From contig JAAYDY010000072.1 of the NCBI GenBank assembly GCA_012729015.1, positions 8,920 through 72,919 of the forward strand: 64,000 nt of DNA. The letters are read 5' to 3'. Source of the DNA: Phycisphaerae bacterium (GTDB lineage Bacteria; Planctomycetota; Phycisphaerae; FEN-1346; JAACEH01). The translations under genes were made by a program, and so were the position numbers. Of this stretch, positions 22,107-38,216 are shown piece after piece. The notes below the pieces were generated by a model that worked only from the letters and a program-made list of their open reading frames with translations, was not told where the DNA came from and did not search any database. The stretch's first letter is position 1. Every line of letters begins with the position of its first letter.

Positions 22107-22243
22107 AACGGCCAGCCAGTCGGGCCACTCGCCCAGGGCACATGTCTGGCTTCACTTGCCCTTGTGTTGCCTGACGTTGAGCGCCTTCCAGAGAAGCAAG
22201 GGATGGGTCCGGATTCGCTCAACCATCTTGGCCTCGGCAGTCA

Positions 22244-22357
22244 GCAATTCTGGTCTGATCCGGCCATGGTCAAGGAGCTCGTCCAAGAAGTCGAGTTCGT
22301 TAGCTGCCAGCCCGTGGCCTGCGATTCATTCATCAGCCGCTCGCGGGAGACCTTCAT
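22244..22357 (-). pseudogene. Probable truncated AbiEii-type toxin gene remnant
   Basis: The ATG at 22357 overlaps the AbiEi stop (ATGA). The frame reads MKVSRERLMNESQATGW..., which resembles AbiEii/DUF1814 N-termini, but stops after 37 codons. Too short to appear in the ORF track. Confidence 0.35.
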
Positions 22358-23154
22358 ACCACCTCCTCCCAGACCCGTTCAGTCAACTGCTTTGGAACGA
22401 TCAGATTCCAGTCGCCTACCAGTTCTCCGCCCTTGCCGCGGTCCAGGTAGTGGGGCTGCTTGGGCCGCAGCTTCCGCAGGGGTTCAAGATGCCGGCTTTC
22501 CACCATTAGCGATTGTGCATGCCGCTCTAGGTAGTAGCCCACCGCAGCCGCAGTCGTACGGTTGTTCAGCAGCTTGGCGTATTCGACCACCAAGTCTAAG
22601 TCGAAGTATTCGACCGACTCCAGTGACCGCCACACCTCTTCCCAGCCTCCGCCCAAATCTTGGCGGTCGTGCAAATCGACGAGCGTTCGCTCGAGGCTTG
22701 CCACCCGGACGTCCACTCCCGATCGTTCGACGTTCGTCGTGGCGAAGAACGGCTTGTTCCGCTCGCGCAAGGCCTTGGGGAACAGGACGCATTCGAATCG
22801 GTACGCCCGGAAGCTTGCTGGGCGGTGCAGCCGAGCACTCTGGAAGAAGTACCGTTCGAACACGGAGTGGGCCTTGCCATGGACCTCAAGGGCCGTATGG
22901 TAGGCCAGGACTGCATCTTCGGCCAGCTTCGCCGCCACCAGGTAGGGGTCAACGGGGCAGGTTTCCGGATCGCCGCCGGGCGGGACAACCGCATACAATC
23001 CCCGCCGCACCCGAAGAAGCCGTCCTTCCTTGAGATAGTAGGACAACAGTGCCTCACGGGAGCGCTTGTTGCGTGAGTGCTTCTGGTCGAGATACGCCTG
23101 AAGTTCTTCCAAGGTAAGAACGGGCCTGTTGGAAACCAGTTGCTGGAGTGTCAT
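22354..23154 (-). CDS. AbiEi-family type IV toxin-antitoxin antitoxin / transcriptional regulator
   Basis: ORF 22354..23523, trimmed to MTLQQLVSNRPVLTLEELQAYL.... It continues GRLLRVRRGLYAVVPPG...YLVAAKLAEDAVLAYHTALEVHG...VRVASLERTLVDL, the typical AbiEi architecture. Confidence 0.75.
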   Translation of the reverse strand: MTLQQLVSNRPVLTLEELQAYLDQKHSRNKRSREALLSYYLKEGRLLRVRRGLYAVVPPGGDPETCPVDPYLVAAKLAEDAVLAYHTALEVHGKAHSVFERYFFQSARLHRPASFRAYRFECVLFPKALRERNKPFFATTNVERSGVDVRVASLERTLVDLHDRQDLGGGWEEVWRSLESVEYFDLDLVVEYAKLLNNRTTAAAVGYYLERHAQSLMVESRHLEPLRKLRPKQPHYLDRGKGGELVGDWNLIVPKQLTERVWEEVV

Positions 23155-23392
23155 GACGACCCTCACTTGACGATACACGACGAAACCCATAGTCTCATTA
23201 AGTGCTACGTCGAACAAGTTCAAGTGTCGGCCTTCCCCGCCGCACACTTGATGAAACCCGACGAAACACCGCATTATATTACGTGTTTCGTCTGGTTTTG
23301 TCAAGACACAAGGAGTCTCGTAAGCCGTTGCTCCGTCACTCGCACTGGACACCATCATGGCCTCCGCCAGGCAAACGCCCGTCTTGACAGCC

Positions 23393-23459
23393 AGCAGTGC
23401 GGTGGTGGGCGAGATGTCGGCCCCTTGCAGATTGAATATCCGATCTTCAATCTGCAAGA
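23393..23459 (+). repeat. Repeat R2: second copy of the hairpin element
   Basis: Stem ttgcagattga (23425-23435), 11-nt loop, stem tcaatctgcaa (23447-23457). About 80% identical to R1 over about 67 nt, in the same orientation. Confidence 0.8.
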
Positions 23460-23551
23460 CCCACGCACCGGCTAGAGCCCCTCGCGGCACCCAAATGGCC
23501 GCCGCGTGACTAATCCTTGACACTTGCTTGGATTAGTCTACCATTTGTAAC

Positions 23552-24157
23552 ATGGCTGAAGAAACCAAGATGCGCCGGCTCCTGGAGTTTGTGGAGCGGC
23601 ACGGCGTGGTGCATGCCCGCGACCTGAAGTCGCTGGGCGTACCTCGGGAGTATCTCCGTCGGCTGTGCGACCGAGGGGTTCTGGTCAGAACTGGCCGCGG
23701 CCTTTACCTGACACCGAGAGCCGCCGACACCGCTCATCTTGACTTGGCTCAGGTTGCAAAGGCGATTCCCAATGCGGTAATCTGCCTGGTGTCGGCTCTT
23801 CAGTTTCACGAGATAGGCACACAGATACCCCACGATGTCTGGCTGGCACTCGACCGCCGCGCCGCTCGGCCCGCCGTTACCTACCCGCCAGTACGCATTG
23901 TACGTTTCTCCGGCAAAGCCCTGACCGAGGGCGTACAGCAGCACGATATTGTCGGCGTCCGGGTGAATGTCTACGGGCCGGCCAAGACGGTGGCGGACTG
24001 CTTCAAGTACCGCAACAAGGTCGGTCTCGACGTGGCGCTGGAAGCCCTGCGGGACGTTCGGCGCACACGCCGCTGCACAAACGACGAGCTCTGGACCTAC
24101 GCGGAGATCTGCCGCGTGACGAATGTCATGCGGCCCTACATGGAGGTCATCGGATGA
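23552..24157 (+). CDS. AbiEi_4-like antitoxin-domain protein
   Basis: 201-aa ORF. RRLLEFVERHGVVHARDLKSLGVPREYLRRLCDRGVLVRTGRGLYLTP is a wHTH of AbiEi_4 type. Its stop overlaps the next start (ATGA at 24154-24157). Confidence 0.7.
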   Translation: MAEETKMRRLLEFVERHGVVHARDLKSLGVPREYLRRLCDRGVLVRTGRGLYLTPRAADTAHLDLAQVAKAIPNAVICLVSALQFHEIGTQIPHDVWLALDRRAARPAVTYPPVRIVRFSGKALTEGVQQHDIVGVRVNVYGPAKTVADCFKYRNKVGLDVALEALRDVRRTRRCTNDELWTYAEICRVTNVMRPYMEVIG

Positions 24158-24471
24158 GCGGACGGAAGGCTAACGTCTACTTCAAGAATCGTCTGGCGGG
24201 TCAACTCCACGAGACAGACTGCGGCTTTGTGTTTCAGTATGATCCGGTCTACCTTGCCAATGGCAAGCCTATCTCCCTCACGCTACCAGTGCGGGCGGAG
24301 CCGTATGTGAGCGAGAAGTTGCCGTCGTTCTTTGAGGGACTGCTACCTGAGGGCTGGTACGAGGAGATCGTGTCCAAGGTTCTGAAGGTCGACCCTGTAG
24401 ATCGGTTTGGCATGCTGCTGGCCACGTGTCGGGACTGTGTCGGCGCCGCATCTATCGAACCGGCAGAGTAG
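24154..24471 (+). CDS. HipA N-terminal-domain protein (HipS-like), no kinase partner
   Basis: 105 aa. VYFKNRLAGQLHETDCGFVFQYDPVYL...LPSFFEGLLPEGW matches the HipA N-subdomain signature. The gene ends 62 nt from the convergent hsdM stop, leaving no room for a HipA/HipT kinase domain. Confidence 0.7.
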   Translation: MSGRKANVYFKNRLAGQLHETDCGFVFQYDPVYLANGKPISLTLPVRAEPYVSEKLPSFFEGLLPEGWYEEIVSKVLKVDPVDRFGMLLATCRDCVGAASIEPAE

Positions 24472-24532: not shown

Positions 24533-26074
24533 TCATGCACCAGGTTCCAGGTCATTGGCTATGGCGTTAAACTGCTCCAACGCCGCCTGAAGATCATCGG
24601 CAATCTCGGTGGCCAACACGTCCGGCTCAGGCAGGTTCTCGCCGTCCTCCAAGCTCTCGTCCCGCAGCCAGAACAGGTCCAGGCTCACCTTGTCCCGTTT
24701 CAGCAGGTCCTCGTAGTCGTAGCACCGCCAGCGGCCATCGGGATTCTTCTCCTCATCCCATGTGGCCTTCCGCTTGCCGATGGCTCCCGGCTTGTAGCAC
24801 GCGACGAACTCGTCAAAATCACGCCGCCGAATCGGGTCCTGCTTGAGCGTGAAGTGCATGTTGGTCCGCAGATCGTAGACCCACAGCTTGCTCGTCCATG
24901 CCTGCTCGCGGCCCGGCTTCTTGTCGAAGAAGATGACATTGGCCTTCACACCAGGCGAATACCAGATGCCCGTCGGCAAGCGGATCAGCGTGTGCACGTC
25001 GCACTGCGTCAGCAACTGCCGACGGACCTTCTCACCGGCCCCGCCCTCGAAGAGCACGTTGTCGGGTACCACCACTGCCGCCCGACCGTTGATCGCCAGC
25101 AGCGAGTTGATGTGCTGGACGAAGTTCAGCTGCTTGTTGCTGGTCGGTGCCCAGAAGTCCTCGCGAACAACGACCTGTTTCTCCTTCTCCAACTCCCCGT
25201 CCTCGTTGACGTAGGACACGCTGGACTTCTTGCCGAACGGTGGATTGGTCAGCACCATCGAGTACCGCCGTCCCCACGCCTTGGCCAGGCTGTCGTGCCC
25301 GGCGTGGACCGGGCTGTCATCGCCACCGATCCCGTGCAGGTAGAGGTTCATGGCACAGAGCCTGGCTGTGTTCGGCACCAGTTCCATGCCTTCGACCAGC
25401 TTCTCCTTCACCCGCTTAAGCTGGGACCGGTTCATGTCCTTGCCGTGATGGTCGATCACGTACTGATAGGCGGCCAGCAAGAAGCCGCCGGTGCCGGCCG
25501 CCGGGTCGCAAATGCCGTCGTCGGGCGTGGGCTGCATCACGTCGACGACAGCCTCGATGACCGGCCGGGGGGTGAAATACTGGCCAGCCCCTTTGGGACT
25601 CTCGGCTGCCGACCGCTGTAGCAGTTCCTCGTAGATGGTTCCCTTCACATCAGCCCCGAGGCCCATCCAGTTGTCCCGGTCGATCAGGTCAACGATCAGC
25701 CGCCGGAGTTTCGCCGGGTCGGCAATCTCGTTCTTGGCCTTCAGGAAGATGGTCCCCAGCATGCCGCCCCGCTTGCCGAGTTCCTCCAGCGTCTTCCGGT
25801 AATGAGCCTCCAGGTCCACGCCGTCCCGCTTGACGAGGTTCGGCCAGTCATACGGAGCCGGCACGATGGGCTTCTGATCGTAAGGCGGCTTCGTCACTTC
25901 ATCTGCCATCTTCAGAAAGAGCAGGTACGTGATCTGCTCAATGTACGCCTGGTAGCTCAACCCGTCGTCCCGCAGAACGTGGGCGAAGCTCCATGCCCGG
26001 TTGCCGATTTGCGAAGTGTCCAGACTCACTTTGCCCCCATGGCCTGTGGCCAACCATCCTTCTCGCGACTTCAA
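24533..26074 (-). CDS. hsdM: Type I restriction-modification system, N6-adenine DNA methyltransferase subunit
   Basis: 513-aa ORF with LFLKMADE, GQYFTPRPV, DPAAGTGGFL and the catalytic VLTNPPFG. The longest ORF starts at a TTG (26074); the GTG at 26029 is an alternative. Confidence 0.95.
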   Translation of the reverse strand: MKSREGWLATGHGGKVSLDTSQIGNRAWSFAHVLRDDGLSYQAYIEQITYLLFLKMADEVTKPPYDQKPIVPAPYDWPNLVKRDGVDLEAHYRKTLEELGKRGGMLGTIFLKAKNEIADPAKLRRLIVDLIDRDNWMGLGADVKGTIYEELLQRSAAESPKGAGQYFTPRPVIEAVVDVMQPTPDDGICDPAAGTGGFLLAAYQYVIDHHGKDMNRSQLKRVKEKLVEGMELVPNTARLCAMNLYLHGIGGDDSPVHAGHDSLAKAWGRRYSMVLTNPPFGKKSSVSYVNEDGELEKEKQVVVREDFWAPTSNKQLNFVQHINSLLAINGRAAVVVPDNVLFEGGAGEKVRRQLLTQCDVHTLIRLPTGIWYSPGVKANVIFFDKKPGREQAWTSKLWVYDLRTNMHFTLKQDPIRRRDFDEFVACYKPGAIGKRKATWDEEKNPDGRWRCYDYEDLLKRDKVSLDLFWLRDESLEDGENLPEPDVLATEIADDLQAALEQFNAIANDLEPGA

Positions 26075-26077
26075 CGC

Positions 26078-26605
26078 TTAACTTCTGCTTCCCATCAGCC
26101 GCCTGGCTTCTTCCCGAGCGGCTTGGGTGAACCTCTTCTCCACCTCGTCAACAGTCCGCAGAGCATCAAGGAATGGCCCCACGTATTCCTTGCCGTCGAA
26201 GTTGCCGGCTTTGTACTGGTCTTTGAACGCCCCGAGTATTGTGCTGATGCGGTCTCTCACGTCGTGTACCTGGCCGGCGTACTCCTTCAAGTGTTCGAAG
26301 TGCAGCGACACCAACATCCTGATGGTCTCGTAGTGTCGATTCTCTTCGTCTGACCGATGACGATTGATCGTGATGTCGAGGGCTTGGTTGTAACTGATCT
26401 CGCCCATCATCACTTTGGCGTAATGGGCGTGCTCCGACACCAGGAGCTTACAGAAGCCAGAGAAGGCCATGAACAACTGTTCGAGTTTCTGCCGCCTGAT
26501 GGCCCTGTCGTCCCTGCTGACCGAGAGCCTATGTGCAACCATTGCAGCGACGACCCCGCTGCACACCACCGTAAGGACTGCGAGAAGTACCTGCGGACCG
26601 CTCAT
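26078..26605 (-). CDS. Hypothetical single-pass membrane protein wedged between hsdS and hsdM
   Basis: 175-aa ORF with N-terminal TM segment PQVLLAVLTVVCSGVVAAMVA. Its ATG overlaps the hsdS stop (ATGA at 26602-26605), and its stop lies 3 nt before the longest hsdM ORF. Confidence 0.5.
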   Translation of the reverse strand: MSGPQVLLAVLTVVCSGVVAAMVAHRLSVSRDDRAIRRQKLEQLFMAFSGFCKLLVSEHAHYAKVMMGEISYNQALDITINRHRSDEENRHYETIRMLVSLHFEHLKEYAGQVHDVRDRISTILGAFKDQYKAGNFDGKEYVGPFLDALRTVDEVEKRFTQAAREEARRLMGSRS

Positions 26606-28191
26606 GGCTTCGTCCTCCGGGTCTTCTTGCGGGGGCGTGTGGGCTTGGCCTTTGGCTTGGCGGCGTTCTGGGCCTGGCGTTCGGACCGGATGCGTTCGAG
26701 GAGGGCCGAGGCCGGTTCGTCGTTGGGGTCCTGGGCGACGAGCTTGCCCTCGAAGGCCCGCTTCAGGATGCTCTGACGCAGGCGGACGGCTCGTCGCAGC
26801 TGCTTCTCGACGGCATGTTCTGCAGACTCAATGACCGACATTCGCTCTTCCACCATGCTGACAATCTCACGGAGTTCAGTTAGCGAGGGAAGCGGAAGCA
26901 CCTGATTCAGAATGTGGCCAGTTGATACCCGCTGATGACCGGCACTCGACTTGGCTAACGCCTCAATGCGTCGCCTGATCATGGAGGATGCAAAGCAGAC
27001 CACAAGGTAGTCGGCCAGATCGTTCATGAGCGGTTTTCCGCAGAAGATACGATCCGGGAATGCGACTCGTCTTCGATTCAGGCCCCTTACAGTCGAGCAG
27101 ACGGCGACATACTCAATGCTGCCGCTCAGCCGGGTAAAAAGAACATCCCCGTTGCACAGAATGCATTGCTCCCCATCTGCCTTCGCGTCAGGGACATACC
27201 GCACGTCGTCCAAGTCTAAACGACCGGGCCGGACGGAGCTTGACCTCAGTATGGGAAGTGTGGTCGACTCATCCTGCGGCACAACGGTGGAGCCACTGCG
27301 GAGTTCCGACAGCAGGTGGTTACACGTTGCCCAGCACCATCCGGGAGGCAGGTCGGGGAGGCCGGTTGTGTCGGGGGCGGCGGGGGGCTGGTACTTGGCC
27401 TCGACCTTCTTGCGTTCGGCGGGCAGCTTGTCGGCGATCTTGGCTTCGTCCCAGCCGGCCTTCTGCTTGCGGGCCTTCCAGGCGTCGAGCTGGTCGGCGA
27501 TCCACCGTTTGCGGCGTTCGACAAGGATTCGCTCCAGCAGGACCTCGGCCGGCTCAACGTCCGGATGCTCGGCCCGCCACGCAGCAGTCAGCCGCCCCTC
27601 GACGGCCGCCTTGAGCACGCTGGACCGATACCGCTTCAGATTCTTCCGCACCCGTCCCAACGCCGCCACGCCTGCATCCAGGTCTGTCAACAACTCCTCA
27701 ATCTTCTCCACAATCCGCCGCTGCTCGTCCCCGGGAGGAATCAGAAGCTCTGACGCCTCGAACTTCCCCTTCGTGATGTGAGCCAGCCCAGCAGCGCCAT
27801 GTGCTGCCGCAATGTACTCGGCTAGATTCTGATTGATCGCGTACCTGAGAAACCGCTTGTCGATCTCTGCGTCGTTGAACTCAATGCGGAAGATGTGCTG
27901 GTTCAGCAAGGCTGGCCCACGGTTCCAGATGTGTGCCCCGAAAGACGTACCTGGAGTGCCGGACCAGGCAAACAGGAGATCGCCATCACGCACGTGATAC
28001 TTGTTCGCAATCCTGTCTGGACAATGGTTAAACTCGGCTTGGGTGTCGTTGAGATTCTGAATGCGGATGATGGGAAGGCCCTCGCCTTTCCAGTGCGACG
28101 GCTTGAAGGCAAAACCATTGACGAGTGTCATCAATTCGCCAACACGTGCCTTCGTCCAACCCTGCGGAAGCTGTCCATCGTTACTGCTCAA
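26602..28191 (-). CDS. hsdS: Type I R-M specificity subunit (two target-recognition domains, long central coiled coil)
   Basis: 529-aa ORF, TTG start. LPQGWTKARVGEL and LPPGWCWATCNHL open the two TRDs. Conserved helices are QRRIVEKIEELLTDLDAGVAAL and REIVSMVEERMSVIESAE. TRD2 DNA is visibly lower in GC. Confidence 0.9.
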   Translation of the reverse strand: MSSNDGQLPQGWTKARVGELMTLVNGFAFKPSHWKGEGLPIIRIQNLNDTQAEFNHCPDRIANKYHVRDGDLLFAWSGTPGTSFGAHIWNRGPALLNQHIFRIEFNDAEIDKRFLRYAINQNLAEYIAAAHGAAGLAHITKGKFEASELLIPPGDEQRRIVEKIEELLTDLDAGVAALGRVRKNLKRYRSSVLKAAVEGRLTAAWRAEHPDVEPAEVLLERILVERRKRWIADQLDAWKARKQKAGWDEAKIADKLPAERKKVEAKYQPPAAPDTTGLPDLPPGWCWATCNHLLSELRSGSTVVPQDESTTLPILRSSSVRPGRLDLDDVRYVPDAKADGEQCILCNGDVLFTRLSGSIEYVAVCSTVRGLNRRRVAFPDRIFCGKPLMNDLADYLVVCFASSMIRRRIEALAKSSAGHQRVSTGHILNQVLPLPSLTELREIVSMVEERMSVIESAEHAVEKQLRRAVRLRQSILKRAFEGKLVAQDPNDEPASALLERIRSERQAQNAAKPKAKPTRPRKKTRRTKP

Positions 28192-29397
28192 TCACACGTC
28201 TCCTGCCAGGTCCAGCAAGTCCTCGTAGCGTGTCGCTACTGCCGCCTTGAACGACAGAACCTTCTTCACGTCCCTGTCGTCCCTGAGCTTCTTCAGGATT
28301 CCCAATTCACGCGAACCAGACCCCTCAATGATCCGCCGGATGATCGGGGCCGCCCGGTCGCTGTAGAACACCTCCCGAACATGCCCGTATCTGGTGAGAC
28401 CGCCTGGCGTTCCGACGTAGCAGAGCACGAGCCACTTCAGGATCTCCGTGGCCACCTCGTCGGATTGACACTGCGTTAAGCCGCCGACGTCTTCGAGTTC
28501 CTCCAGCGGCGGTGGATGACGTTCATAGTTGCTCCAGCCATGGCCGACTTCGCGGAGACGCCCGAGCAGCCCCGAGAAGAAGTCGTTACGCGTGGCCTGC
28601 TTCAGGTATGCCATTGCCCCTGCGGCGTGGGCCACTTTCATAACGGCCAAAGTGGGCACGGCACGACCGACACGGCCCTGCAGATCAGCCGCTGCGGCAA
28701 TCCTCACCGGAGTACGAGTAGCTCCGGCCAGGTGTTTGATCATCTCGAGTGCGTTGACCCGAACTACGTCGGGTTTCTCTGTATCTAGGGCAGATGACAC
28801 CAGAAAGAGCATGATCTCGCGTTGGCGAGGTTCCGGAGCATTTGCATAGTCGTCGAGGAACTGCTGCTCGGGAAACTGAGGGCGGTCTTGTTCAATCGCG
28901 TCCTTCACATCGGTCACGCGAAGCAGCTGAACCGGATCGCGGCTCAGGACAGCCTCGATGCACGTCTTGAAGATGTAGACGCAGTCCTCAAGGCCGGCTT
29001 CGTACTCATCGTCCTCGTGTTCCAGGTCCCGCCGGATGTCGTAGCACCGTTTGAGCTTCCTCCACTCGGCTCGCGTCAGGAGTCCCATCCGATAGGCCAA
29101 GTCCATGATCTTGTCGTTGGAGTAGTTCTCGATGTCCTCCGGCTTGCTGACGGGCGGCAGCTTGTGTATCTCCGCGGCCTGCTTGGCGATGTCCAAACCG
29201 GCGATGACGATCTTCTCGCGAAGATCATGTATTGCTGCATTCAGCAGACGCTGGCATGCACTGCTGGGGTCCACAGGCATGAGTCGGGTGACTCGCTCGA
29301 TGAGAGAACGATCCGCCCATGCCGGCCTGATCTGGGCAAGGAGGGCCTGTGCTGGGGCAAGTTCCGCTTCTCTCTCAATGGGAAGATCGTCTGCCAT
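28192..29397 (-). CDS. Hypothetical 401-aa protein inside the hsd operon; N-terminal helical region with an Rx4H (HEPN-like) motif
   Basis: ORF whose TGA directly abuts the hsdS TTG. RRDLEH (residues 122-127, nt 29017-29034) lies in an all-helical context, ...WRKLKRCYDIRRDLEHEDDEYEAGLEDCVYIFKTCIEAVL. No other motif recognised. Confidence 0.55.
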   Translation of the reverse strand: MADDLPIEREAELAPAQALLAQIRPAWADRSLIERVTRLMPVDPSSACQRLLNAAIHDLREKIVIAGLDIAKQAAEIHKLPPVSKPEDIENYSNDKIMDLAYRMGLLTRAEWRKLKRCYDIRRDLEHEDDEYEAGLEDCVYIFKTCIEAVLSRDPVQLLRVTDVKDAIEQDRPQFPEQQFLDDYANAPEPRQREIMLFLVSSALDTEKPDVVRVNALEMIKHLAGATRTPVRIAAAADLQGRVGRAVPTLAVMKVAHAAGAMAYLKQATRNDFFSGLLGRLREVGHGWSNYERHPPPLEELEDVGGLTQCQSDEVATEILKWLVLCYVGTPGGLTRYGHVREVFYSDRAAPIIRRIIEGSGSRELGILKKLRDDRDVKKVLSFKAAVATRYEDLLDLAGDV

Positions 29398-29438: not shown

Positions 29439-30200
29439 CTACTGGAAGTACTGGGAGGCTTCGCCGCGATGCTGCTGTGCTCTCCCCTGGCTGTAGGGTA
29501 CCGGCAGGCTTCCTGCTACGGCTTGTGCCAAGTAGGCATCGATCTCGGTTCGCAGACCAACAATCCGTGCTACGTGATTCGCATCATTTGGATTCCACCA
29601 CTTCCACCAGTTATTGGCCATGACGTTGGCGGCGTTCTGGAATGGAGCATCAACGGAGGGATCGGTGCAAACGCCATACGGTGCGGCCTTGGTTTCGGCC
29701 TCGTAGGCAAGAACAATGGCTTCTCCTATGGCGATACCAGCAGAGTAGCGGGGATTATACTGCATGGCCAGCGTGCCTTGGAGCAGGTCTGCACCCAAGA
29801 GCAGCTTGCCCCGAGCCACACCACAGCGGTAGAAGCAGCGATGGACCGTGTTGGCCTTCATGAAATGGCAGGCCAACCTCCTGAAGACACGTTGCACATA
29901 GTCCCTGACGCTCCTACTCTCATCAGACACTGCATAGAACCCGTCGATTACGGGGTAAACGGACACATACGTGGACCTCTCTTCCAGTGCCGCAGCGTGG
30001 AGCCGGCCAACATGGTTGGCGGCTCGAGCAAGCGACGCTTTCATGTGATTCCTTGCTCCCATCAGGTCGATCCATGCGACGGTTCGGGTCTTGGCGGCTC
30101 GGCCCAGATTAGATGCATCAAAGTAGACATCCTTCTCGCTGGACCACGGACTAACGCCAGGCGATCCGACCGCTCCGCTAATCGCTCCCGCTCTGGTCAT
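29439..30200 (-). CDS. Hypothetical 253-aa protein with class III nucleotide-cyclase-like motifs, coupled to hsdR
   Basis: Its ATG overlaps the hsdR stop (ATGA at 30197-30200). VAWIDLMGARNHM, YPVIDGFYAVS, FYRCGVARGKLLLG and IAIGEAIVLAYEAE occur in the order and spacing of the cyclase beta1 metal-Asp, beta2 metal-Asp, RIGIHxG and GxxVNxAARxE elements. Confidence 0.45.
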   Translation of the reverse strand: MTRAGAISGAVGSPGVSPWSSEKDVYFDASNLGRAAKTRTVAWIDLMGARNHMKASLARAANHVGRLHAAALEERSTYVSVYPVIDGFYAVSDESRSVRDYVQRVFRRLACHFMKANTVHRCFYRCGVARGKLLLGADLLQGTLAMQYNPRYSAGIAIGEAIVLAYEAETKAAPYGVCTDPSVDAPFQNAANVMANNWWKWWNPNDANHVARIVGLRTEIDAYLAQAVAGSLPVPYSQGRAQQHRGEASQYFQ

Positions 30201-33016
30201 GCCACAAGCCTTTCGTTTAGCTCCGCCAAGATCGTATCGAGACGATCACCGAACAGCTGATAGGCCCGGCCGAGGTCGCCATGCTGGGCGAACCATCCGA
30301 GGGAGAAGTCCTCACGCTCGACGCGGACGCTGGTGGCGATAGCCTGGGCGATCTGGTCCAGCCACTGCCGCTGCTCTGGCGTGAAGGTCACGCCCATCTT
30401 GCCTTGCTCGTCAAGCCACCTCTGATAGCGTTCCATGACCACCGTGGCGAATGGCGTGAGCGGTTCGTCGGGGTGGATGGCGTGGAGGATCAGCGTGACG
30501 ATGTCGGCCAGCTGGCGGCCGCCGGAACCGCGGACCTTGGACTTGTCCAGGGCCTCGTAGGCGTGCCACAGAAGCTCGGGCGTGGCCTCCAGCGGGGGCC
30601 GCTGGATCAGTTGGGCGATGGACTTGATGTCGTCGAAGTCGACCTTGTTGCCGTAGCGGCGGGAGTAGATCAGTTCCAGGGCCATGATTTCGGCCTTGTT
30701 CTCCTCGATCCACTGGCGGAACGTCTCGATCTTGCCGCGGGCCTTCTCCTGGGCGGCGGCGTCGAAACCGGCGATGGTCACCTCGTCGAGGCTGATGCGG
30801 TCGATGGTCTGTTCATTGGCCGCCTTGATCTCCAGCAAGCGGTTGCGGAGTTCCGGGTTGTGAAGCGGCATGACGGCGGTGCGGGCCAGAGACTCGGCCG
30901 CATGGTCAATCTGTTCCTGCGTGGGCTGGGTGTCATCGGCCAGGCCGTTGGCGGATCGGGCTTCCTCAAGCTGGCGGTCGGGATCAACGGCGGCCACCAG
31001 TGCCCCGGCCAGGTCGGAGAGCGTCTTGCCGCCGGCCAGGTCCGCCAGTTCGCGTTTCTGGGGATCGGTGATCTCCTGGTCGAGCCGAGCCAGGCGAGCG
31101 GCCAGCGTGCTGAGGGCATCGGGATCGGTGCCGCCCATGGCCACATAGTTCAGGAGCTTCTTCAGCGAGACGCTGGGCTGGCGGTTGAGCGGGGCCGAGT
31201 CGGTCTTGTCGTGTTCGCACACGCCCACGCAGTCGACGATCACGAAGCGACTCTTGGCCTTGGCGTCGGGCGTGACGGCCTTGAGGTCGTCGGGGCGGAT
31301 GACGCGGACGCCGCGACCCTTCATCTGCTCGAAGAAGTTGGCCGACTTGACGTTCCGCATGAACATGACAATCTCCAGAGGCTTCACGTCGGTACCCGTG
31401 GCCACCATGTCGACCGTGACGGCAATCCGGGGGTTGAAGCTGAGGCGGAAGGCAGTCAGCACGTCGTCGGGCGTCATGGCGGAGACCTTCTTCCAGGTGT
31501 GGCCGCCACCCTCGGTCGGCACCCGCATGAAGCCCGTGCGGTAAGTGATCTTCTGGCAGAAGTCGTTCCCGCGGCCGAACTCCTCGCGGATGATGTTGAC
31601 GATGTCCTCGGCGTGCGAGTCGTCCTTGGCGAAGATGAGCGTCTTCGGGACCTCGGTGCGGCCGGGGAAGATGTCGGTGAAGAGCTTGTCGCGGAAAGTG
31701 CGGATGACCGTGCGAATCTGGTCCACCGCCACCACGTCGCGGTCGAGCTGGTTGGCCGTGTAGGTCAGGTCGTCGTCGAGTTGCTCGTAGCGGACGCGGC
31801 GGGTCAGGCGGTCGCGTTTGTCGACCAACTGGCCGGCGTCGATGGTCTCCCCGGACTCAGTGATCTTGGTGCTGATGCGGTACACGTCGTAGTTGACGTT
31901 CACGCCGTCGGCCACGGCCTCGGGGTGGGTGTACTCCATGACCAGGTTGCGGTTGAAGAAGCCGATGGTCTGCTTGCTGGGCGTAGCCGTGAGGCCGATG
32001 ATGTAGGCGTCGAAGTAGTCGAGCACTTGACGCCAGAGGTTGTAGATGCTCCTGTGACATTCGTCGACAACCACGAAGTCGAACGTCTCGATAGGCACGT
32101 TCGGATTATAGGCGATGGGCGGTGGTGGAGCGGACAGCGGGATGCCGGAGTCGAACATCGATCCCTCTTCGACGGCCGGGTCGAGTTCTGCCTCGCCCCG
32201 GAGGATCGAATAGAGTCGCTGCACCGTTGTGATGACCACACGGTTGACCGTACCGATGCTGTTCGTGCTGAGTCGCTGGATGTTGTAGATTTCGGCGAAG
32301 GTGCGGCCGTCGTCCGGTGTGCGGAACTGGCGGAACTCGGTCTCGGTCTGGCGGCCCAGGTTCGTGCGGTCGACCAGGAAGAGGACCCGCCGGGCATCGG
32401 CGTGCTTGATGAAGCGGTAGACGAAGTTGGCAGCGGTGAACGTCTTGCCGCTGCCGGTCGACATCTGGATCAGGGCCTTGGGGCGGTCCAGGGCCATGGA
32501 CTGCTCCAATTGGGCAATCGCTCGGATTTGGGCTTTCCACAGGCCCTCGGTCACCAGTGGCGGCATCTGCCGCAGGCGACCCCTGAGTTGCTGGCCGTCG
32601 TTGGCCCAGTCGAGCAGCGTCTCTGGCCGGTGGAAGTGAAACAGGTCCCGGCTGCGGGGATCGGGATCGCGATTGTCAGTGAACCGGGTTTCCTCGCCCG
32701 TGGACTCGTAGGCGAACGGAAGCGGCCGGGCGTAGGCAGGCAGGTCGTCAGGCAGCCCCTCGGAGTAGCGGGCCGACTGTGGCTCGACGCCGGTCAGCGT
32801 GTGTCCCACAGCCTTGGCCTCGACCACGCCGACAGCCTTGGCATCGACGTAGAGCAGGTAATCCGTGAAACCGAAGCCGGACTTCAGGGGGAACTCACGG
32901 ACCGCGATGCCCCGTCCAGCGGCCAGGTTCAGCCCGGACATCGACTGGACGATCCACCCCGCCGCGGCCAGCTTGGCGTCGATGTTTTCACGAGCTTGGG
33001 CTTCTGGACTCGGCAC
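30197..33016 (-). CDS. hsdR: Type I restriction enzyme R subunit (nuclease + SF2 helicase + EcoEI-type C-terminal domain)
   Basis: 939-aa ORF with a GTG start and GAGGTGG upstream. Motifs: ARENIDAKLAAAGW, nuclease DYLLYVDAKAVGVVEAKA, helicase MSTGSGKTFTA, VVVDECHRS, GLTATP and QMKGRGVR. Confidence 0.95.
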   Translation of the reverse strand: MPSPEAQARENIDAKLAAAGWIVQSMSGLNLAAGRGIAVREFPLKSGFGFTDYLLYVDAKAVGVVEAKAVGHTLTGVEPQSARYSEGLPDDLPAYARPLPFAYESTGEETRFTDNRDPDPRSRDLFHFHRPETLLDWANDGQQLRGRLRQMPPLVTEGLWKAQIRAIAQLEQSMALDRPKALIQMSTGSGKTFTAANFVYRFIKHADARRVLFLVDRTNLGRQTETEFRQFRTPDDGRTFAEIYNIQRLSTNSIGTVNRVVITTVQRLYSILRGEAELDPAVEEGSMFDSGIPLSAPPPPIAYNPNVPIETFDFVVVDECHRSIYNLWRQVLDYFDAYIIGLTATPSKQTIGFFNRNLVMEYTHPEAVADGVNVNYDVYRISTKITESGETIDAGQLVDKRDRLTRRVRYEQLDDDLTYTANQLDRDVVAVDQIRTVIRTFRDKLFTDIFPGRTEVPKTLIFAKDDSHAEDIVNIIREEFGRGNDFCQKITYRTGFMRVPTEGGGHTWKKVSAMTPDDVLTAFRLSFNPRIAVTVDMVATGTDVKPLEIVMFMRNVKSANFFEQMKGRGVRVIRPDDLKAVTPDAKAKSRFVIVDCVGVCEHDKTDSAPLNRQPSVSLKKLLNYVAMGGTDPDALSTLAARLARLDQEITDPQKRELADLAGGKTLSDLAGALVAAVDPDRQLEEARSANGLADDTQPTQEQIDHAAESLARTAVMPLHNPELRNRLLEIKAANEQTIDRISLDEVTIAGFDAAAQEKARGKIETFRQWIEENKAEIMALELIYSRRYGNKVDFDDIKSIAQLIQRPPLEATPELLWHAYEALDKSKVRGSGGRQLADIVTLILHAIHPDEPLTPFATVVMERYQRWLDEQGKMGVTFTPEQRQWLDQIAQAIATSVRVEREDFSLGWFAQHGDLGRAYQLFGDRLDTILAELNERLVA

Positions 33017-33222: not shown

Positions 33223-36156
33223 TTAGCAGCCGGGCTGCCTGTCACGCCGGTCCATCGAATGCGGCGAATCGCCCGCCGCAGGCTCCGATTTCGTCAGAAC
33301 TGCAAGCTGGAAACGAAGTCCGGCGGCGGCCGACTCCGGCAAGGGCACTCGGGCGGCCAGTTTCTCGGCCGCACAAACGTCGTTCGCATACTCGTCGTAC
33401 TCTTCGCCCATCAGGATGCTGAACCATCGACGGCGGTCGACGACCACGCGATACATCTTCTCATCCTGGGTCTGGCTGACGTAGGGCAGGAAGACCTGGA
33501 TCGACCTGCCGCAGACTTCCGCCTTGGCCCCGATCCGGTCGATTCGGCCGGTCCGCTGCTCCAACGTGCTGGGATTCCAGCAGAGGTCGTGGTGGATGAC
33601 GTGTCGGCAGTTGAGGTGCAGGTCGACGCCTTCGGCCATGACACTGCTGGCGACGAGAATCTCCGGATAGAACGGGGTGTTGAAGGTAAGCATCAGCCTC
33701 TGGCGGGTGATTTGTCGGGTGCTGCCATTGACCAGGCGGACATTCGGCAGCAGTGCTTCCGTGCCCGCCTGCTGGAGTTCATCGTCGGAGTAGTAGGAGG
33801 CCAGCCTTTCACCGATGTGCGATCCGGTCTGCACTGACAGGAGGGCCTCGACGTACCGGTCGATCAGCTCCGGCTCGCCCAGACGGTGGGCCAGGAACTC
33901 GAAAAAGTTGCGGAGTTGCTGACGAAGAGAAAGACCGGACGCGTCTTCCGTCTCAAGGGCCTGACGGACGGAGTCCTCATCCTGCCGCGTGCGTTCCAGC
34001 GGGAAGAACCGGGCCAGGAAGGAGGGCGTCCGCAGATTCCTTCGGACAATCTCCACAAGGTCATCGCAGCGACCGGCCAGTGGCGGAAACTCGGAGAGGA
34101 TGGCTCTGATTTCATGGTCGCAGGCCCGACGCACGGGAGAGTCCGTGTCGAAGAAGCGGTCCCCCAGACGCTCCAACTCGATCTCTGCCTCTGTGGTGGG
34201 ACATCCCAGCTTGGCTGCGGCCTGTTCGGCTGTCTTTCGGCGAATGGCCTCGGAGATGCGTTCACGAAGGGCTCGACCGGTAGCCACGTAGTGGCAGAAG
34301 ACAACCACCTTCTCGCCCCGAGCCCACGTCTCAACAGCCCGTTGCACTGTAGCCGCAATCTTGGGGTGCCCGGCCATGGCGAGCGGATCGTTTCGAGGCA
34401 GGAACTTCTCGAGCTGAGCCAGGTACCACATAGCCGTCTTGTCGATGGCTGATTTCACCGGCGGGTCGTCGTCACCGTCGAGAATCGAGTTCACATCGGC
34501 TTCGGCACCTGCCGGGTCCTTAGCCACGCGTTGCCGAGTCAGCAGAAAGGCCTCATAACTGGAGGCAAGACCTTCGGCGAAGACCGGCCGCGACTTGGGC
34601 GTGCAGGCCGTCGCCCGGGCAGCCAGCAGGAACGGCAACAGGCTCTGCCCCTGAATGGAGATGCCTTCACTGCTACCGGGGTTGCCATCGCCAACGAGAA
34701 GAATCCGCCGGCCGGGTAGTTCATCTCTTCGCGGCACCCCTTGGAACGGATTTGGAAGAGCCTTGGGCCTTACGTGCCTGATGACCCACGGGGCGAGGAC
34801 CTCCTCGGCCCGTTTCATAGAGGGCTGCACGCGGCTGAAGCACGACAGAACTTCCTGCAACTTAGGCGACACATCACGGCCATTCATCGCGGCAGGCCAC
34901 CAGTCGTCCTCGGGAGAGTGCGGCACACCGTCGATCTTCAGATCTGACTCGTCCAACCGGCTCCAGACCTTGTCCAGTGTCAGCGATGACTGCTGGGCTG
35001 CGTCAAGCCGGCGGCGAAGCTCGCTAACCTGCTCCAGGAAGGTCTTGCGGGACTGCGAGTCCGCCATCCGGGTTCCGGAGAACCGCTCGATCACCGAGCA
35101 GAGTTCGTGATGCCCCAGTTGGAACGGCGTGGCCGTCAGAAAGAGCATCCGCTCGAACACGCCATGCAGAGCTCCCCGCTCGACGATGGCGGCGTCATCC
35201 TGGGCTTCGGACACCTGAAACAGGCCGGCCAGCCGCGTGCCCGGATTCTTCAGGTGATGGGCCTCGTCGAGAATCAACAGCGGCAGGCGGAATCTCATCC
35301 GCTGGATGGCCAGATCCCAGAGCTTGCGGATTTCATCCCGGATGGCATGACGGGCCTGCTTCAGATGCCATTCGTAGTGCTTCGTCTGTCGCTGAGGAAC
35401 GTCCCGATTGAGAACCGCGTAGAGTTCATCGGTGTCCCGAGCCCTCAGCTTCTCGAGCACGGCCAGCAGAGCCGCCGGCACAGGGTCATCGTCGTTATCG
35501 GGGTTTCCGTCTCCCTCCGGATCGACGTCCCAGGCATGGAGCACCGTCAGCCAGTCGGACGGCAGTTTTCTCAGCAACTCCTCCCACATCTCGGGGTCTC
35601 TGTCCGCCCGACCCAGCCTGAGCAGACGGCCGGCCGTGCGGCCCAGCACCCGTCGCAGTTGTTTCGTTTGGTGCCGACCGTGAAGAGCCCGGTGAATGAA
35701 GGCCAGCTTCATCCAGCCATCATCCAGTGCCCGGTTCATTGCTCCGTGCGTAAGGAAGATGAGACTGCTCCGCCGATCCTTCGGATCGTCAAGCAACTTC
35801 AGGAACGTGGTGGCCTTGTCGGCTTTGCCATAACGCAGTCTGGCCTGAGCCTCCTGGGGCAGACACCGTTTGCGAAACAGCTCGAAGTCGTGCGGCCACT
35901 TCTCCTTCAGCGACGGAGGAACCATAGCGACCACCGGCCGACCGCCAGCGTCATTGAGGGCAACGGAGGCCGCAACCGCCAGGGCTACAAATGTCTTGCC
36001 CATCCCGACTTCATCCGCCAGAACCAGTCCCGGCTGTTTCGCCAACCGGCGCAGAATCTCACCGGCGGTCGCGGTCTGCCGGCTCGCGTCTTCGGAGGAG
36101 ATGCGGCCTTCGATGTACAGGTTGAGGCCTGAGAACAAGGGGTGTTGCCATGTCAT
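33223..36156 (-). CDS. SNF2-family helicase (977 aa)
   Basis: Motifs LADEVGMGKTFVALAVA, LLILDEAHHLKN, LFLTATPFQ, ILVASSVMAEGVDLH, HHDLCWNPSTLEQRTGRIDRIG. Its ATG overlaps the stop of the PLD gene (ATGA at 36153-36156). Confidence 0.9.
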   Translation of the reverse strand: MTWQHPLFSGLNLYIEGRISSEDASRQTATAGEILRRLAKQPGLVLADEVGMGKTFVALAVAASVALNDAGGRPVVAMVPPSLKEKWPHDFELFRKRCLPQEAQARLRYGKADKATTFLKLLDDPKDRRSSLIFLTHGAMNRALDDGWMKLAFIHRALHGRHQTKQLRRVLGRTAGRLLRLGRADRDPEMWEELLRKLPSDWLTVLHAWDVDPEGDGNPDNDDDPVPAALLAVLEKLRARDTDELYAVLNRDVPQRQTKHYEWHLKQARHAIRDEIRKLWDLAIQRMRFRLPLLILDEAHHLKNPGTRLAGLFQVSEAQDDAAIVERGALHGVFERMLFLTATPFQLGHHELCSVIERFSGTRMADSQSRKTFLEQVSELRRRLDAAQQSSLTLDKVWSRLDESDLKIDGVPHSPEDDWWPAAMNGRDVSPKLQEVLSCFSRVQPSMKRAEEVLAPWVIRHVRPKALPNPFQGVPRRDELPGRRILLVGDGNPGSSEGISIQGQSLLPFLLAARATACTPKSRPVFAEGLASSYEAFLLTRQRVAKDPAGAEADVNSILDGDDDPPVKSAIDKTAMWYLAQLEKFLPRNDPLAMAGHPKIAATVQRAVETWARGEKVVVFCHYVATGRALRERISEAIRRKTAEQAAAKLGCPTTEAEIELERLGDRFFDTDSPVRRACDHEIRAILSEFPPLAGRCDDLVEIVRRNLRTPSFLARFFPLERTRQDEDSVRQALETEDASGLSLRQQLRNFFEFLAHRLGEPELIDRYVEALLSVQTGSHIGERLASYYSDDELQQAGTEALLPNVRLVNGSTRQITRQRLMLTFNTPFYPEILVASSVMAEGVDLHLNCRHVIHHDLCWNPSTLEQRTGRIDRIGAKAEVCGRSIQVFLPYVSQTQDEKMYRVVVDRRRWFSILMGEEYDEYANDVCAAEKLAARVPLPESAAAGLRFQLAVLTKSEPAAGDSPHSMDRRDRQPGC

Positions 36157-38216
36157 ATGCCTGCCTCCTCGAAGGCTGACTCGACATACTGGCCGAGGTT
36201 GGCCTCCGCCCCTCGAACAGCCCTCTGAATGTCAACACACAGTTCACCAATGGTCTGTCTGATCGCTTCGCGGACCTTTGCTGGCGGGAGGCAGCCGGCA
36301 CAGGATTTGGGCTGCACCCGCGAAAGCTCCAGGGCAAGTTCCGTCAGCAGGAAACTCTTCTCTTCGTCATTCACCCCTTCCTTGAGGATCGCTTTGGCCA
36401 GAGCCTTGACGCCGACAGGCCCGTGAAGCCGCCAGGCAAGGCTCTCCGCCGTGCCGACCGGCTGCTCCAGCCGCTCCCGCATTCGCGACAGGGCGAGCGA
36501 CACACGACGCGTCCTCTGCAGGAGGAAGCCCGAGGTGTCGACGCGTCTGTGAGGGTCAACGTCAGGCCCTGGAACTGGCCCGGAGATCTGCCGAGACCGC
36601 GACAGTTCGCGGAGCAGCACGTGCAGTGGTCGGGCCGAGGACAGGATTCGCACCAGATCGTCGAGCGACAGGTTACGCAGTTCGTCCGGAGGCGGCAGCA
36701 CTCGAGCGTCTTCAACGTTGACCGGCCACCAGGCAGGCCCGGCCGCCCCCATCCAGCGGACGTTGAAGCCCGAGGGGGCTGCATTGCCCATTGGCCAAGG
36801 GATGCGTACCTCCGCCGGGGTCCCACCGGCCAGCCACCGTGCTTCGTCGTAGAGCGGCGGAGTGCCCTCTTCCTGTTGAACTGACCAGCCGGCAGGCGGC
36901 TGCCCATTGAAGGTCAGCACCACCTCATGGCTCTGGTCATCGCAACTCCGGAAGGTAGCCGGCCCAAACTCTGCCGGCAGAACGATCTCGCTGGAAGGTT
37001 CATCCTCGTTGGCGGCCGAGTCAGGCTCCAGCCACCGGCAGGCATCGGTCTCGATTTCCTCTCCGTCCAGGCTACCCGCCGCAAACTGTTCCAGAGCCTT
37101 CTTGTCCGCAGCATTGGAGAGAAGATAGAGCAGATTGGCTTCGATGTTGGTCCGAGGACCAAGACCCAGCCCGGCCGTGGTGAAGTTGCTCGACCCGATG
37201 AGGTGCCCCCACCAGCAATCGCTTTCCAGCCAGAGACTCTTGGCATGCAACGGACGGCCCTCAAGTTCAAGGCGGCTTATGCAAACCTCGACGTCCGAAC
37301 GGTGGAGGGGTCCGGTTTCGATCAGGGACCTGGGGGCATGGACAAGAAGCTTCTCCTCGCCGGGAATCTCCTCCACAATGACGTTAAACTCGGCTGTGGC
37401 CTCACCCTTCTGATTCAGGAGGTCCCAGAGAGCTCCGGCCGGTTTGTTGGGCTGGTCATTCTCGGGGGGATCAAAGAACGGGCTGGTAACCACGGCCCAC
37501 TTCGGTGGACCGCCGCTCGGCCAGTTCTTCCGGATCGACGCAAAGGCATCAGGTCTGCCGGGGCCCGTGACGACCAGACAGACACGAGGGCCTTTCCTCG
37601 GCGTGCTCTCTCTACCCCACGACTTCCTGACTGCGAGTTGACGAACCCGCTTGAGGAAGCCTTGCCATCGGCCGAGGGCCCGACACTGGTCAGCGGGCCA
37701 GGACACCAAGGCAGAGGCCTCGCCAAGGAAATCGAGCACCTCTCTCAGGCAGTCCAACGGGCTTGCGGAAGCTTCGTGGTAATCCAGGACCCCGAAGATC
37801 TCCTGGTTCCGCTGATAGCCGTCCGGCGTCAGGTTCGCCGAGGCTACGACCAATCGCACTAGGTTGCTCCAGGCCAGCAGCGAGACCTTGGCGTGCAGTA
37901 TGCCCTTCTGAATGCGGGCTGGCAGCAAGTCCCAACGCAGACTCCGTGTGCCCCGGCAGTTGTGCTGGTCCACGAGCACCGCCGCACAGGCCAACTGCGA
38001 GAGCTTCTCCTCCCGCTCTACCAGGTAGAGCTTCCCGTCCTCGTTGGCACCGGTCTCCATCTGTACCAGGCGACCGAGGCACTGCTCCTCGAAGAACACC
38101 GGATCGAAGGTGAACGTAGTCGCCACGCAACCGATCGGGCTGCCCGCGTCGAGCGGTGGGGTCCAAGCGTCGAGCAGCCGACCGTATCCGGGCTGGGTAT
38201 CGCGTCGCTTTCTCAT
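36153..38216 (-). CDS. Phospholipase D-superfamily (HxK) nuclease-like protein, two HKD-type motifs (687 aa)
   Basis: GILHAKVSLLAWSNLVRLVVASANLT and PLHAKSLWLESDCWWGHLIGSSNFTTAG are two HxK...(S)xN motifs. Its ATG overlaps the upstream stop (ATGA at 38213-38216). Confidence 0.85.
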   Translation of the reverse strand: MRKRRDTQPGYGRLLDAWTPPLDAGSPIGCVATTFTFDPVFFEEQCLGRLVQMETGANEDGKLYLVEREEKLSQLACAAVLVDQHNCRGTRSLRWDLLPARIQKGILHAKVSLLAWSNLVRLVVASANLTPDGYQRNQEIFGVLDYHEASASPLDCLREVLDFLGEASALVSWPADQCRALGRWQGFLKRVRQLAVRKSWGRESTPRKGPRVCLVVTGPGRPDAFASIRKNWPSGGPPKWAVVTSPFFDPPENDQPNKPAGALWDLLNQKGEATAEFNVIVEEIPGEEKLLVHAPRSLIETGPLHRSDVEVCISRLELEGRPLHAKSLWLESDCWWGHLIGSSNFTTAGLGLGPRTNIEANLLYLLSNAADKKALEQFAAGSLDGEEIETDACRWLEPDSAANEDEPSSEIVLPAEFGPATFRSCDDQSHEVVLTFNGQPPAGWSVQQEEGTPPLYDEARWLAGGTPAEVRIPWPMGNAAPSGFNVRWMGAAGPAWWPVNVEDARVLPPPDELRNLSLDDLVRILSSARPLHVLLRELSRSRQISGPVPGPDVDPHRRVDTSGFLLQRTRRVSLALSRMRERLEQPVGTAESLAWRLHGPVGVKALAKAILKEGVNDEEKSFLLTELALELSRVQPKSCAGCLPPAKVREAIRQTIGELCVDIQRAVRGAEANLGQYVESAFEEAGI

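Follow-up and report, generated by a model that had tools for sequence, protein, structure and literature searches.

What does the gene that directly follows hsdR in a type I restriction-modification (R-M) operon of a Phycisphaerae bacterium encode, and does its product act in defence? The gene lies within a 64,000-nucleotide stretch of contig JAAYDY010000072.1 (the window, to whose positions the coordinates refer; Table 1) and encodes a protein of 253 amino acids, referred to here as the target. A first-pass annotation made from the DNA letters had proposed a minimal class III nucleotide cyclase, translationally coupled to hsdR, that would tie second-messenger signalling of the Pycsar type to restriction. 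Our favoured reading retains the fold and the coupling and departs from the signalling: the open reading frame (ORF) would represent a very divergent, unannotated branch of the cyclase-homology (class III cyclase/GGDEF palm) superfamily, carried as a single-gene cassette in a type I R-M operon and serving as a metal-dependent defence accessory that uses nucleoside triphosphates (NTPs). Taken whole, we regard this as an evenly balanced proposition. Its parts differ: membership of the cyclase/GGDEF palm superfamily is very probable on the predicted structure, whereas an active metal-dependent, NTP-using enzyme is somewhat favoured, and a relation to defence is favoured to the same degree.

Predicted fold, gene and family

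The assignment is carried by the predicted structure. A model built with AlphaFold2 from a 130-sequence alignment of homologues (pLDDT 91.0, pTM 0.86; a model from a 4-sequence alignment, with pLDDT 32, was not used) contains in its N-terminal half beta1 (residues 37-46), alpha1 (49-73), beta2 (80-84), beta3 (87-92) and alpha2 (95-115), followed by a long beta4 (124-135), short helices (136-153), a strand (157-159), a helix (160-169) and a further strand (177-179), and ends in two C-terminal helices (207-228 and 238-251). In this model the target has the beta-alpha-beta-beta-alpha-beta palm fold of the cyclase homology domain, with D45 placed where beta1 ends and D86 lying within the beta2-beta3 hairpin. 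The fold proposed in the first-pass annotation is thus borne out, and no different fold was predicted.

Comparison of the model with the PDB using Foldseek gave 44 matches at E <= 1e-3, nearly all of them class III cyclase catalytic domains. Ranks 1 to 25 are without exception class III adenylyl or guanylyl cyclase catalytic domains, with the best scores for Rv1264 (2.9e-6) and CyaC (1.7e-5), and they include 3mr7, Rv1900c, soluble guanylate cyclase, Ma1120, Cya2 and photoactivated cyclases. Normalised to the target, the TM-scores are 0.55-0.68 with about 160 columns covered. Further down are a GGDEF domain (rank 26) and the Pycsar cUMP synthase 7r65 (PycC; rank 31, E 6.7e-4), and weaker matches, to guanylate cyclase and GGDEF proteins, came from a viral structure library. 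As far as predicted structure goes, the resemblance to class III cyclases is much greater than chance. Three other palm-type candidates were considered and set aside, as Thg1-like proteins, reverse-transcriptase palms and Cas10 are not present in the top 50 PDB matches, and reverse transcriptases occur only as weak matches in the viral library. Sequence searches of the PDB with 4- and 130-sequence profiles gave no match.

The gene comes second in an operon of six, which runs hsdR, target, a 401-aa ORF, hsdS, a 175-aa ORF and hsdM; the genes are on the same strand, either overlapping or separated by gaps of no more than 41 nt, and three of the ORFs are embedded among the R-M genes. An ATGA overlap, read directly from the sequence, couples translation of the target gene to that of hsdR, as had been proposed. 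The start codon within this overlap is the only one 5' of the conserved beta1 strand, ATG, GTG and TTG being otherwise absent from M1 to M47. Homologues align to the target from about residue 25 to its end, and the most conserved block, VAWIDLMG, lies 5' of M53. Because this block precedes M53 and there is no alternative start between M1 and M47, we conclude that the start overlapping hsdR is the functional one. Public gene calls nonetheless begin the target at M53 (201 aa), with loss of beta1 and D45; they remove half of the active site, and expression experiments based on them would be misled. In these calls (loci L037-L040) the M53 start leaves an apparent 152-nt 'intergenic' gap behind hsdR (30045-30200).

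An exhaustive HMMER search was needed to reveal the family to which the target belongs. It contains at least 457 representatives (each a 50%-identity cluster) at E <= 1e-3 and 172 at E <= 1e-30, nearly all of 225-280 aa, whereas a word-indexed homology search returned just 3 relatives at 32-35% identity, and 8 with a profile query. The loci collected are spread over Thermotogae, Acidobacteriota, Bacillota, Bacteroidota, Pseudomonadota and one haloarchaeon. Scans of the target against Pfam, NCBIfam and PADLOC at E <= 1 gave no match, nor did a PHROG scan, and the 130 aligned members have no consistent match to Pfam or PADLOC, with two of them matching the generic PADLOC 'Cyclase' model weakly (3.4e-4). 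The sole public name for family members is 'hypothetical protein', and in the literature we found no description of a cyclase-fold gene in R-M operons, which is consistent with the suggestion that such an arrangement is undescribed.

A tblastn search of GenBank phages and PLSDB plasmids gave no match to the window protein in either set. With a central family member as query, the only plasmid copy found is on pRL7 of Rhizobium johnstonii 3841 (NC_008382.1 82120-82895; L131 6974-7749), where it is called as two adjacent 'hypothetical protein' coding sequences (187 aa and 71 aa) beside repABC and recombinase/transposase genes. This copy is probably a frameshifted pseudogene.

Conservation was counted in the 130-sequence alignment, whose members share about 25-35% identity. 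Residues W43, D45, M47, G48, S56, H68, P83, D86, G87, G131, G159, A165, E169, A172, P174, G176, W201 and Y251 are invariant or nearly so, and the four motifs singled out in the first-pass annotation (residues 41-51, 84-92, 123-136 and 156-169) are the family's most conserved blocks. Within the first, D45 and G48 are each present in 129/130 sequences and W43 in 124/130; in the second, D86 is present in all 130, G87 in 129 and P83 in 123. Position 125 is R or K in 130/130 sequences, with G131 also in 130/130 and G136 in 115/130, and the fourth block has G159 in 128/130, A165 in 123/130 and E169 in 126/130. Both Asp residues proposed as metal ligands are therefore conserved among homologues. The C-terminal segment has its own conserved positions, with W201 in 125/130 sequences, Y236 in 116, H244 in 113 and Y251 in 117. 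One clade (L021 9716-11026, L022 4494-5843, L112, L114, L119, L121 and L035), from acidobacterial metagenome-assembled genomes (MAGs) and soil metagenome contigs, carries a further C-terminal extension of about 100-130 aa, made up of a low-complexity linker and then a conserved helical repeat, L(N/S)L(S/T)EEQ...IKPI...RE...FLTEAQR..LIERE, which is reminiscent of LTxxQ/Spy-CpxP-type motifs.

Residue-level comparison with class III cyclases

To what extent does the family retain the sequence features of class III cyclases? Cyclase sequences were taken from the PDB alignments (a first profile of 6 sequences) and enlarged to 125 domains for hhalign; both profiles gave the register described below, neither of them with significance. 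Alignment of the family with this profile of the cyclase homology domain has a score of 19.7 (E 0.038), which is also reached by 4/100 column shuffles and 6/100 block shuffles and is not significant alone, and the homology claim thus rests on predicted structure together with motif colinearity. No match to PF00211 was obtained at E <= 1 for the target or any of the 130 members.

The register of the alignment agrees with the model in assigning all four motifs, in order, to the structural elements originally proposed for them. D86 falls on the Asp of the cyclase GD motif; R125, G127, G131 and G136 fall on RxGIHxGxxxxG; G159, A165 and E169 fall on GxxVNxAxRxE; and APPFGI falls on AxPGxI. A global alignment places D45 and G48 on FxDIxGFT, with D45 on the Asp of FSDIVGFT. 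The family and the class III cyclases (e.g. Rv1264, CyaC, Ma1120 and soluble guanylate cyclase) accordingly have in common a predicted palm core, the two metal-binding Asp residues and a colinear series of motifs: xxDxxG at the end of beta1, an xDG hairpin, RxGxxxGxxxxG, and GxxxxxAxxxE...AxPxGI.

The remaining catalytic residues are a different matter. Position 163 takes the place of the transition-state Asn (family V34/I32/A24, target V) and the unconserved position 167 that of the transition-state Arg (family E29/Q21/L13, target E), although we note that this register comes from a weak alignment in which a one-residue shift is possible (Q164 in 72/130, L in the target). The base-specifying Lys, four residues before the hairpin Asp in cyclases, maps to Y82 (Y98/F12/H7 in the family); outside the motifs the residue register is approximate. 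Two structural differences accompany these substitutions, in that the segment aligned with the dimerisation beta-hairpin arm of class III cyclases is predicted to form short helices (136-153), and the family adds about 65 residues at the C-terminus as a Trp-rich helical extension. The family thus shares its fold and metal-binding dyad with class III cyclases, but it does not significantly match their sequence profile, lacks their remaining catalytic residues and does not have the architecture of Pycsar considered below.

The C1 half-domain of mammalian cyclases likewise retains both Asp residues while its Asn and Arg are replaced, as seen in the corresponding rows of the cyclase alignment. C1 is inactive without its C2 partner, which supplies Asn, Arg, Lys and Asp. 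The similarity to a heterodimeric half-site ends there, however, as no C2-like paralogue is encoded near family members in the loci collected.

The missing Asn/Arg pair and Lys would also be in keeping with a catalytically inert cyclase-fold protein, binding nucleotide or metal and regulating or scaffolding restriction helicases, for example in HsdR loading, restriction alleviation or complex stability. In such a role the helices added at the C-terminus could form an interaction module. We consider such an accessory improbable. Both acidic residues, the DxxG loop and R125 are near-absolutely conserved across the 130 sequences, which argues that chemistry has been retained, and the distribution of the family described below bears on it further.

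Genomic neighbours and the question of defence

To place the family in context we collected 32 genome, 80 metagenome and 5 viral loci together with several exact-match contigs, and dereplicated them to 80 at 85% identity. The search used a 19-sequence sub-alignment that samples only the sub-population with APPFG[IV][YF][VI]H, so that the target's own clade does not contribute to the context statistics. When the genes at positions +/-3 were clustered by BLAST and phmmer, no family was present in more than 4 of the 80 loci. The 110 immediate neighbours match 104 different Pfam families, the commonest being ResIII (6), Helicase_C (5) and DEAD (4), and there is no protein with a cyclic nucleoside monophosphate (cNMP)-binding domain, TIR domain, patatin domain or transmembrane (TM) effector among them, nor in the target operon.

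These observations bear directly on the proposal that the target is a Pycsar-like minimal cyclase, which would make a cyclic mononucleotide signal upon infection and act through an effector encoded elsewhere or through the 401-aa or 175-aa ORF. The predicted fold, which matches class III cyclases with 7r65 among them, and the conservation of both putative metal-binding Asp residues are in keeping with it, as is the presence in the operon of two uncharacterised ORFs, one with a TM-like N-terminus. In Pycsar (PycC with the cNMP-activated PycTIR or PycTM) and Pucsar, too, a small cyclase-fold protein that stands alone is found in an anti-phage setting. To our knowledge PycC is a bona fide PF00211 member and always paired with an effector gene (Tal et al. 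2021). The target, by contrast, has no effector gene and matches neither PF00211 nor any of the PADLOC models, among them that for PycC; its Asn/Arg pair and specificity Lys are replaced, as in C1; and the 401-aa and 175-aa ORFs lack a cNMP-binding domain and are not seen with the family at other loci. With the cyclase Asn/Arg pair absent and no cognate effector, Pycsar-type cNMP signalling is unlikely, and we regard a Pycsar-like role for the target as distinctly improbable. The cCMP/cUMP signalling tied to restriction that the first-pass annotation put forward is accordingly not upheld, all the more so as only about 5-10% of family members are R-M-linked.

The same distinction separates the family from other minimal palm enzymes. 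Pucsar is a cGMP offshoot of Pycsar (bioRxiv 10.64898/2026.08.12.744502), and mCpol/Panoptes combines a Cas10-type palm polymerase with a 2TM effector (PMC12657218, PMC12657230); like GGDEF diguanylate cyclases, whose domains are among the weaker structural matches of the target, mCpol is a minimal palm nucleotide-condensing enzyme. The known cyclase-fold defence enzymes (Pycsar, Pucsar and, distantly, mCpol/Panoptes) are all paired with effectors. In contrast to GGDEF proteins and mCpol, the hairpin of the target family reads Y-P-V-M-D-G-x-Y and has neither GG[DE]EF nor GGDD, and there is no PF00990 match. The absence of Cas10 from the leading PDB matches and of an adjacent membrane effector further distinguishes the family from mCpol/Panoptes.

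Where family members do lie beside restriction genes, the arrangement is recurrent. In the window the stop codon of hsdR overlaps the start of the target gene; at two loci (L031 and L033) the order is hsdR, family member, hsdS, with gaps of a few nt; and a third (L045) has hsdS, hsdR, a 132-aa ORF and the family member. At L027 the member lies between a DrmD-like SNF2 gene and an MmeI-type methylase gene with overlapping stops and starts, and at L005 the order is SNF2, methylase, AIPR, family member. These six are the embedded copies; hsdR, SNF2 or a type I/IIG methylase is present within the operon in about 6 of the 80 dereplicated loci, and the remaining copies are solo. The R-M-linked members have mutual identities of 24-35% and fall on at least three separate branches of a neighbour-joining tree, such that a position behind a restriction helicase gene (hsdR or SNF2) recurs in at least three deeply separated lineages. 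This placement either arose repeatedly or is ancient and often lost. As only about 5-10% of members are so linked, the family is a free-standing module that is sometimes embedded, and not an R-M component.

There is precedent for such an organisation. That operons of the type I R-M, BREX, DISARM and Hma systems can harbour embedded defence genes is an established concept, and Payne et al. predicted 145 candidates that are now in PADLOC (bioRxiv 10.1101/2024.01.29.577857); according to the same study, the PrrC anticodon nuclease is almost exclusively embedded in type I systems. TgvAB of the Vibrio cholerae island VPI-2 is an experimentally confirmed type I-embedded system (PMC11411939). The target has the same architecture, an unrelated gene nested between hsdR and hsdS, and its family similarly occurs solo elsewhere with a minority of copies embedded. 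However, the known embedded systems are GmrSD-like nucleases, anticodon nucleases and ABC ATPases, not cyclase-fold proteins; the target family is not among the 145 PDC/HEC families (no PADLOC v2 match), and neither a cyclase nor a palm enzyme is mentioned in the preprint text of Payne et al. (bioRxiv 10.1101/2024.01.29.577857).

Recurrence immediately after hsdR or SNF2 genes, with overlapping stop and start codons, is also what an inert accessory of the restriction helicases would show. About 90% of the members have no helicase neighbour, though, so the family protein must function without HsdR. A second alternative is that the gene is cargo unrelated to defence, such as a housekeeping signalling cyclase or a mobile-element gene, that has settled in a permissive intergenic site. 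The many loci with ordinary neighbours, including an insertion between pheS and pheT, and the failure to find a conserved partner are consistent with a hitch-hiker of this kind, but we judge it quite improbable, given the 4-nt stop/start overlap within a tightly packed six-gene operon and the same placement in at least three distant lineages. Moreover, restriction genes accompany the family at about 6/80 loci, compared with well under 1% for a random gene by our order-of-magnitude estimate, and other loci have AbiU2, AIPR, AbiE, FRG and GajB-like neighbours, with one at a P2 prophage hotspot. Specifically, neighbours include a GajB-like UvrD helicase and AIPR (L001), DUF4145 (L003), Sel1 followed by the HEPN protein AbiU2 (L015), the P2-type replication gene A of an Aeromonas prophage (L013) and an AbiEi/AbiEii and FRG island (L041). 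Proteins with an FRG domain (PF08867) are encoded a few genes from family members at two unrelated loci (L041 6352-7404 and L045 1118-1990), in one case within a type I R-M operon in which an SLFN/AlbA_2 gene is also present.

We therefore favour the reading in which the gene is a candidate new stand-alone defence gene and not a known signalling system. By a logic of 'guilt by embedding', the target would be a self-contained accessory anti-phage module that binds metal and NTP and performs nucleotidyl-transfer or cyclase-type two-metal-ion chemistry. Its most likely mode would be for the enzyme itself to be the effector, either consuming NTPs or transferring nucleotides to a cellular or phage target. 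TRAM and cold-shock domains are OB folds that bind single-stranded nucleic acid, and two rare fusions, of a C-terminal TRAM domain to P0080 (residues 253-309, 2.8e-13) and of an N-terminal CSD to P0117 (residues 1-64, 4.4e-7), are independent of one another and hint that RNA or single-stranded DNA is the substrate or trigger; RNA or another single-stranded nucleic acid could thus be what receives the nucleotide or sets off the enzyme. When embedded, the protein would be produced stoichiometrically with HsdR and, more speculatively, might be masked by the restriction complex as PrrC is by EcoprrI. A bolder version, which we hold to be unlikely, is that this is a single-gene immune family in which a cyclase-homology palm acts without a second-messenger effector as a 'guard', co-translated with and restrained by HsdR or SNF2 translocases, and that upon infection or anti-restriction attack it nucleotidylates or extends RNA or tRNA, or burns NTPs. 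Its logic would be analogous to that of PrrC-EcoprrI with a wholly different enzyme.

Several points weigh against the favoured reading, to which the shuffled-profile scores and the approximate register given above also belong. A defence role is not established: about 90% of members are not beside R-M genes, and many lie among ordinary genes such as those for glycosyltransferases, an ABC transporter, priA or DUF58/VWA. In an Aquisalinus MAG (L044 1602-2417), the family member P0147 (271 aa) lies between pheS and pheT with stop/start overlaps on both sides, an odd, tRNA-related housekeeping setting. No regulator, as is normally needed by a stand-alone toxic enzyme, was seen. The target is also divergent within its family, lacking Y40, F122, Y130, P132, Q164, E181 and R184, which are common in its relatives, and from its sequence it could be a decaying or functionally shifted copy.

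The family is noteworthy in being large and wholly unannotated. Its catalytic signature is clear, and its genetic association with restriction helicases is both unusual and recurrent, even though its sequence-level link to cyclases is weak. If active in defence, the target would be the first cyclase-fold enzyme to protect without a dedicated cNMP-reading effector and the first nested in restriction operons, extending both the Pycsar/CBASS/mCpol theme and that of embedded defence genes, and a function would be gained for at least 457 clusters now named 'hypothetical protein' and invisible to Pfam, NCBIfam and PADLOC. With 253 aa and two obvious residues to knock out, it is a tractable case for studying how accessory genes cooperate with type I R-M enzymes.

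The R-M operon and surrounding island

The features of the target gene, its operon and other genes of the region are listed in Table 1. Of the other two embedded ORFs, the 401-aa ORF gave no match in Pfam, NCBIfam or PDB searches, and the 175-aa ORF no significant family (Pfam, NCBIfam) or PDB match. The 401-aa ORF was considered as a conserved partner of the target and rejected, being found with the family at no other locus.

Table 1. Features of the target gene, the R-M operon and the low-GC region in the window.
Feature	Coordinates	Strand	Basis or remarks
Target ORF, coding sequence of the 253-aa protein with predicted cyclase-homology fold	29439-30200	-	Stop codon 29439-29441; ORF list, homologue alignment, AlphaFold2, Foldseek
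ATGA overlap of target ATG (30200-30198) with hsdR TGA (30199-30197)	30197-30200	-	Read from sequence
AAAGG, Shine-Dalgarno-like element 8 nt 5' of target ATG, within hsdR 3' end	30209-30213	-	Consensus resemblance only
Residues 41-51, VAWIDLMGARN, end of beta1 and phosphate-loop-like DxxG	30048-30080	-	D45 (30066-30068), putative first metal-binding Asp
Residues 84-92, VIDGFYAVS, beta2-beta3 hairpin	29925-29951	-	D86 (29943-29945), putative second metal-binding Asp
Residues 123-136, FYRCGVARGKLLLG, long beta4 equivalent to RxGIHxGxxxxG	29793-29834	-	Strand 124-135 in model; hhalign register
Residues 156-169, IAIGEAIVLAYEAE, strand and helix equivalent to GxxVNxAxRxE, without Asn and Arg	29694-29735	-	hhalign register
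Residues 190-253, Trp-rich segment (WWKWW) and two-helix C-terminal extension	29442-29633	-	Family-specific, absent from cyclase domains
hsdR (939 aa), directly upstream of target	30197-33016	-	Pfam ResIII 9e-34, EcoEI_R_C 9.5e-33, HSDR_N 1.2e-5
401-aa ORF, second embedded, 41 nt downstream of target	28192-29397	-	phrog_27609 2e-12; weak PDC-M45A match
hsdS (529 aa)	26602-28191	-	Pfam Methylase_S 5e-17
175-aa ORF, third embedded, hydrophobic N-terminal helix, overlaps hsdS stop by 4 nt	26078-26605	-	
hsdM (513 aa)	24533-26074	-	Pfam N6_Mtase 2.6e-63, HsdM_N 2.6e-10
NERD and Zn-ribbon gene	45099-46538		In low-GC island
SUFU-like gene	43698-44789		In low-GC island
Imm7-like gene	17984-19198		In low-GC island
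TPR gene	21192-21947		In low-GC island

Around the operon, some 30 kb of sequence (16000-47000) has a GC content of 0.58-0.64, compared with 0.68 on either side (1-16 kb and about 48-50 kb). This low-GC stretch is probably a horizontally acquired defence/immunity island; in addition to the genes in Table 1, it holds two AbiEi-like genes, a HipA N-terminal fragment and an SNF2/PLD gene pair. The sole tRNA gene in the window (Leu-CAG, 59493-59564) is not at the edge of the island.

Directly upstream of hsdR and on the same strand (33223-39550) are genes for an SNF2 helicase (977 aa; PADLOC PDC-M27C 7e-40, DrmD 3.5e-27), a PLD-like protein whose gene overlaps that of the helicase (687 aa; ZacB 2e-11, PDC-M27B 8e-6) and a 445-aa ORF without a Pfam match. 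Together these genes look like a second, candidate-only defence system, similar to PDC-M27, that abuts the R-M operon.

On the other side of the operon, a 98-nt element is present in two copies that are 72% identical (22035-22132 and 23388-23485), each containing a 34-nt near-perfect palindrome, TTGCAGATTGAAyATCCrATmTTCAATCTGCAAG. The copies flank a 389-aa ORF containing AbiEi_4 (22354-23523, minus strand), and the element could be a repeat resembling REP/MITE (repetitive extragenic palindrome/miniature inverted-repeat transposable element) sequences, an operator, or the ends of an inserted cassette. Between this ORF and hsdM, at 23552-24471 on the plus strand, an AbiEi_4 antitoxin-like gene (201 aa) precedes an ORF of 105 aa made up solely of the HipA N-terminal Couple_hipA domain; about 60 nt separate the end of the latter from the hsdM 3' end. 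Its appearance suggests either a hipA kinase gene cut short when the R-M operon inserted, or a decayed toxin-antitoxin module.

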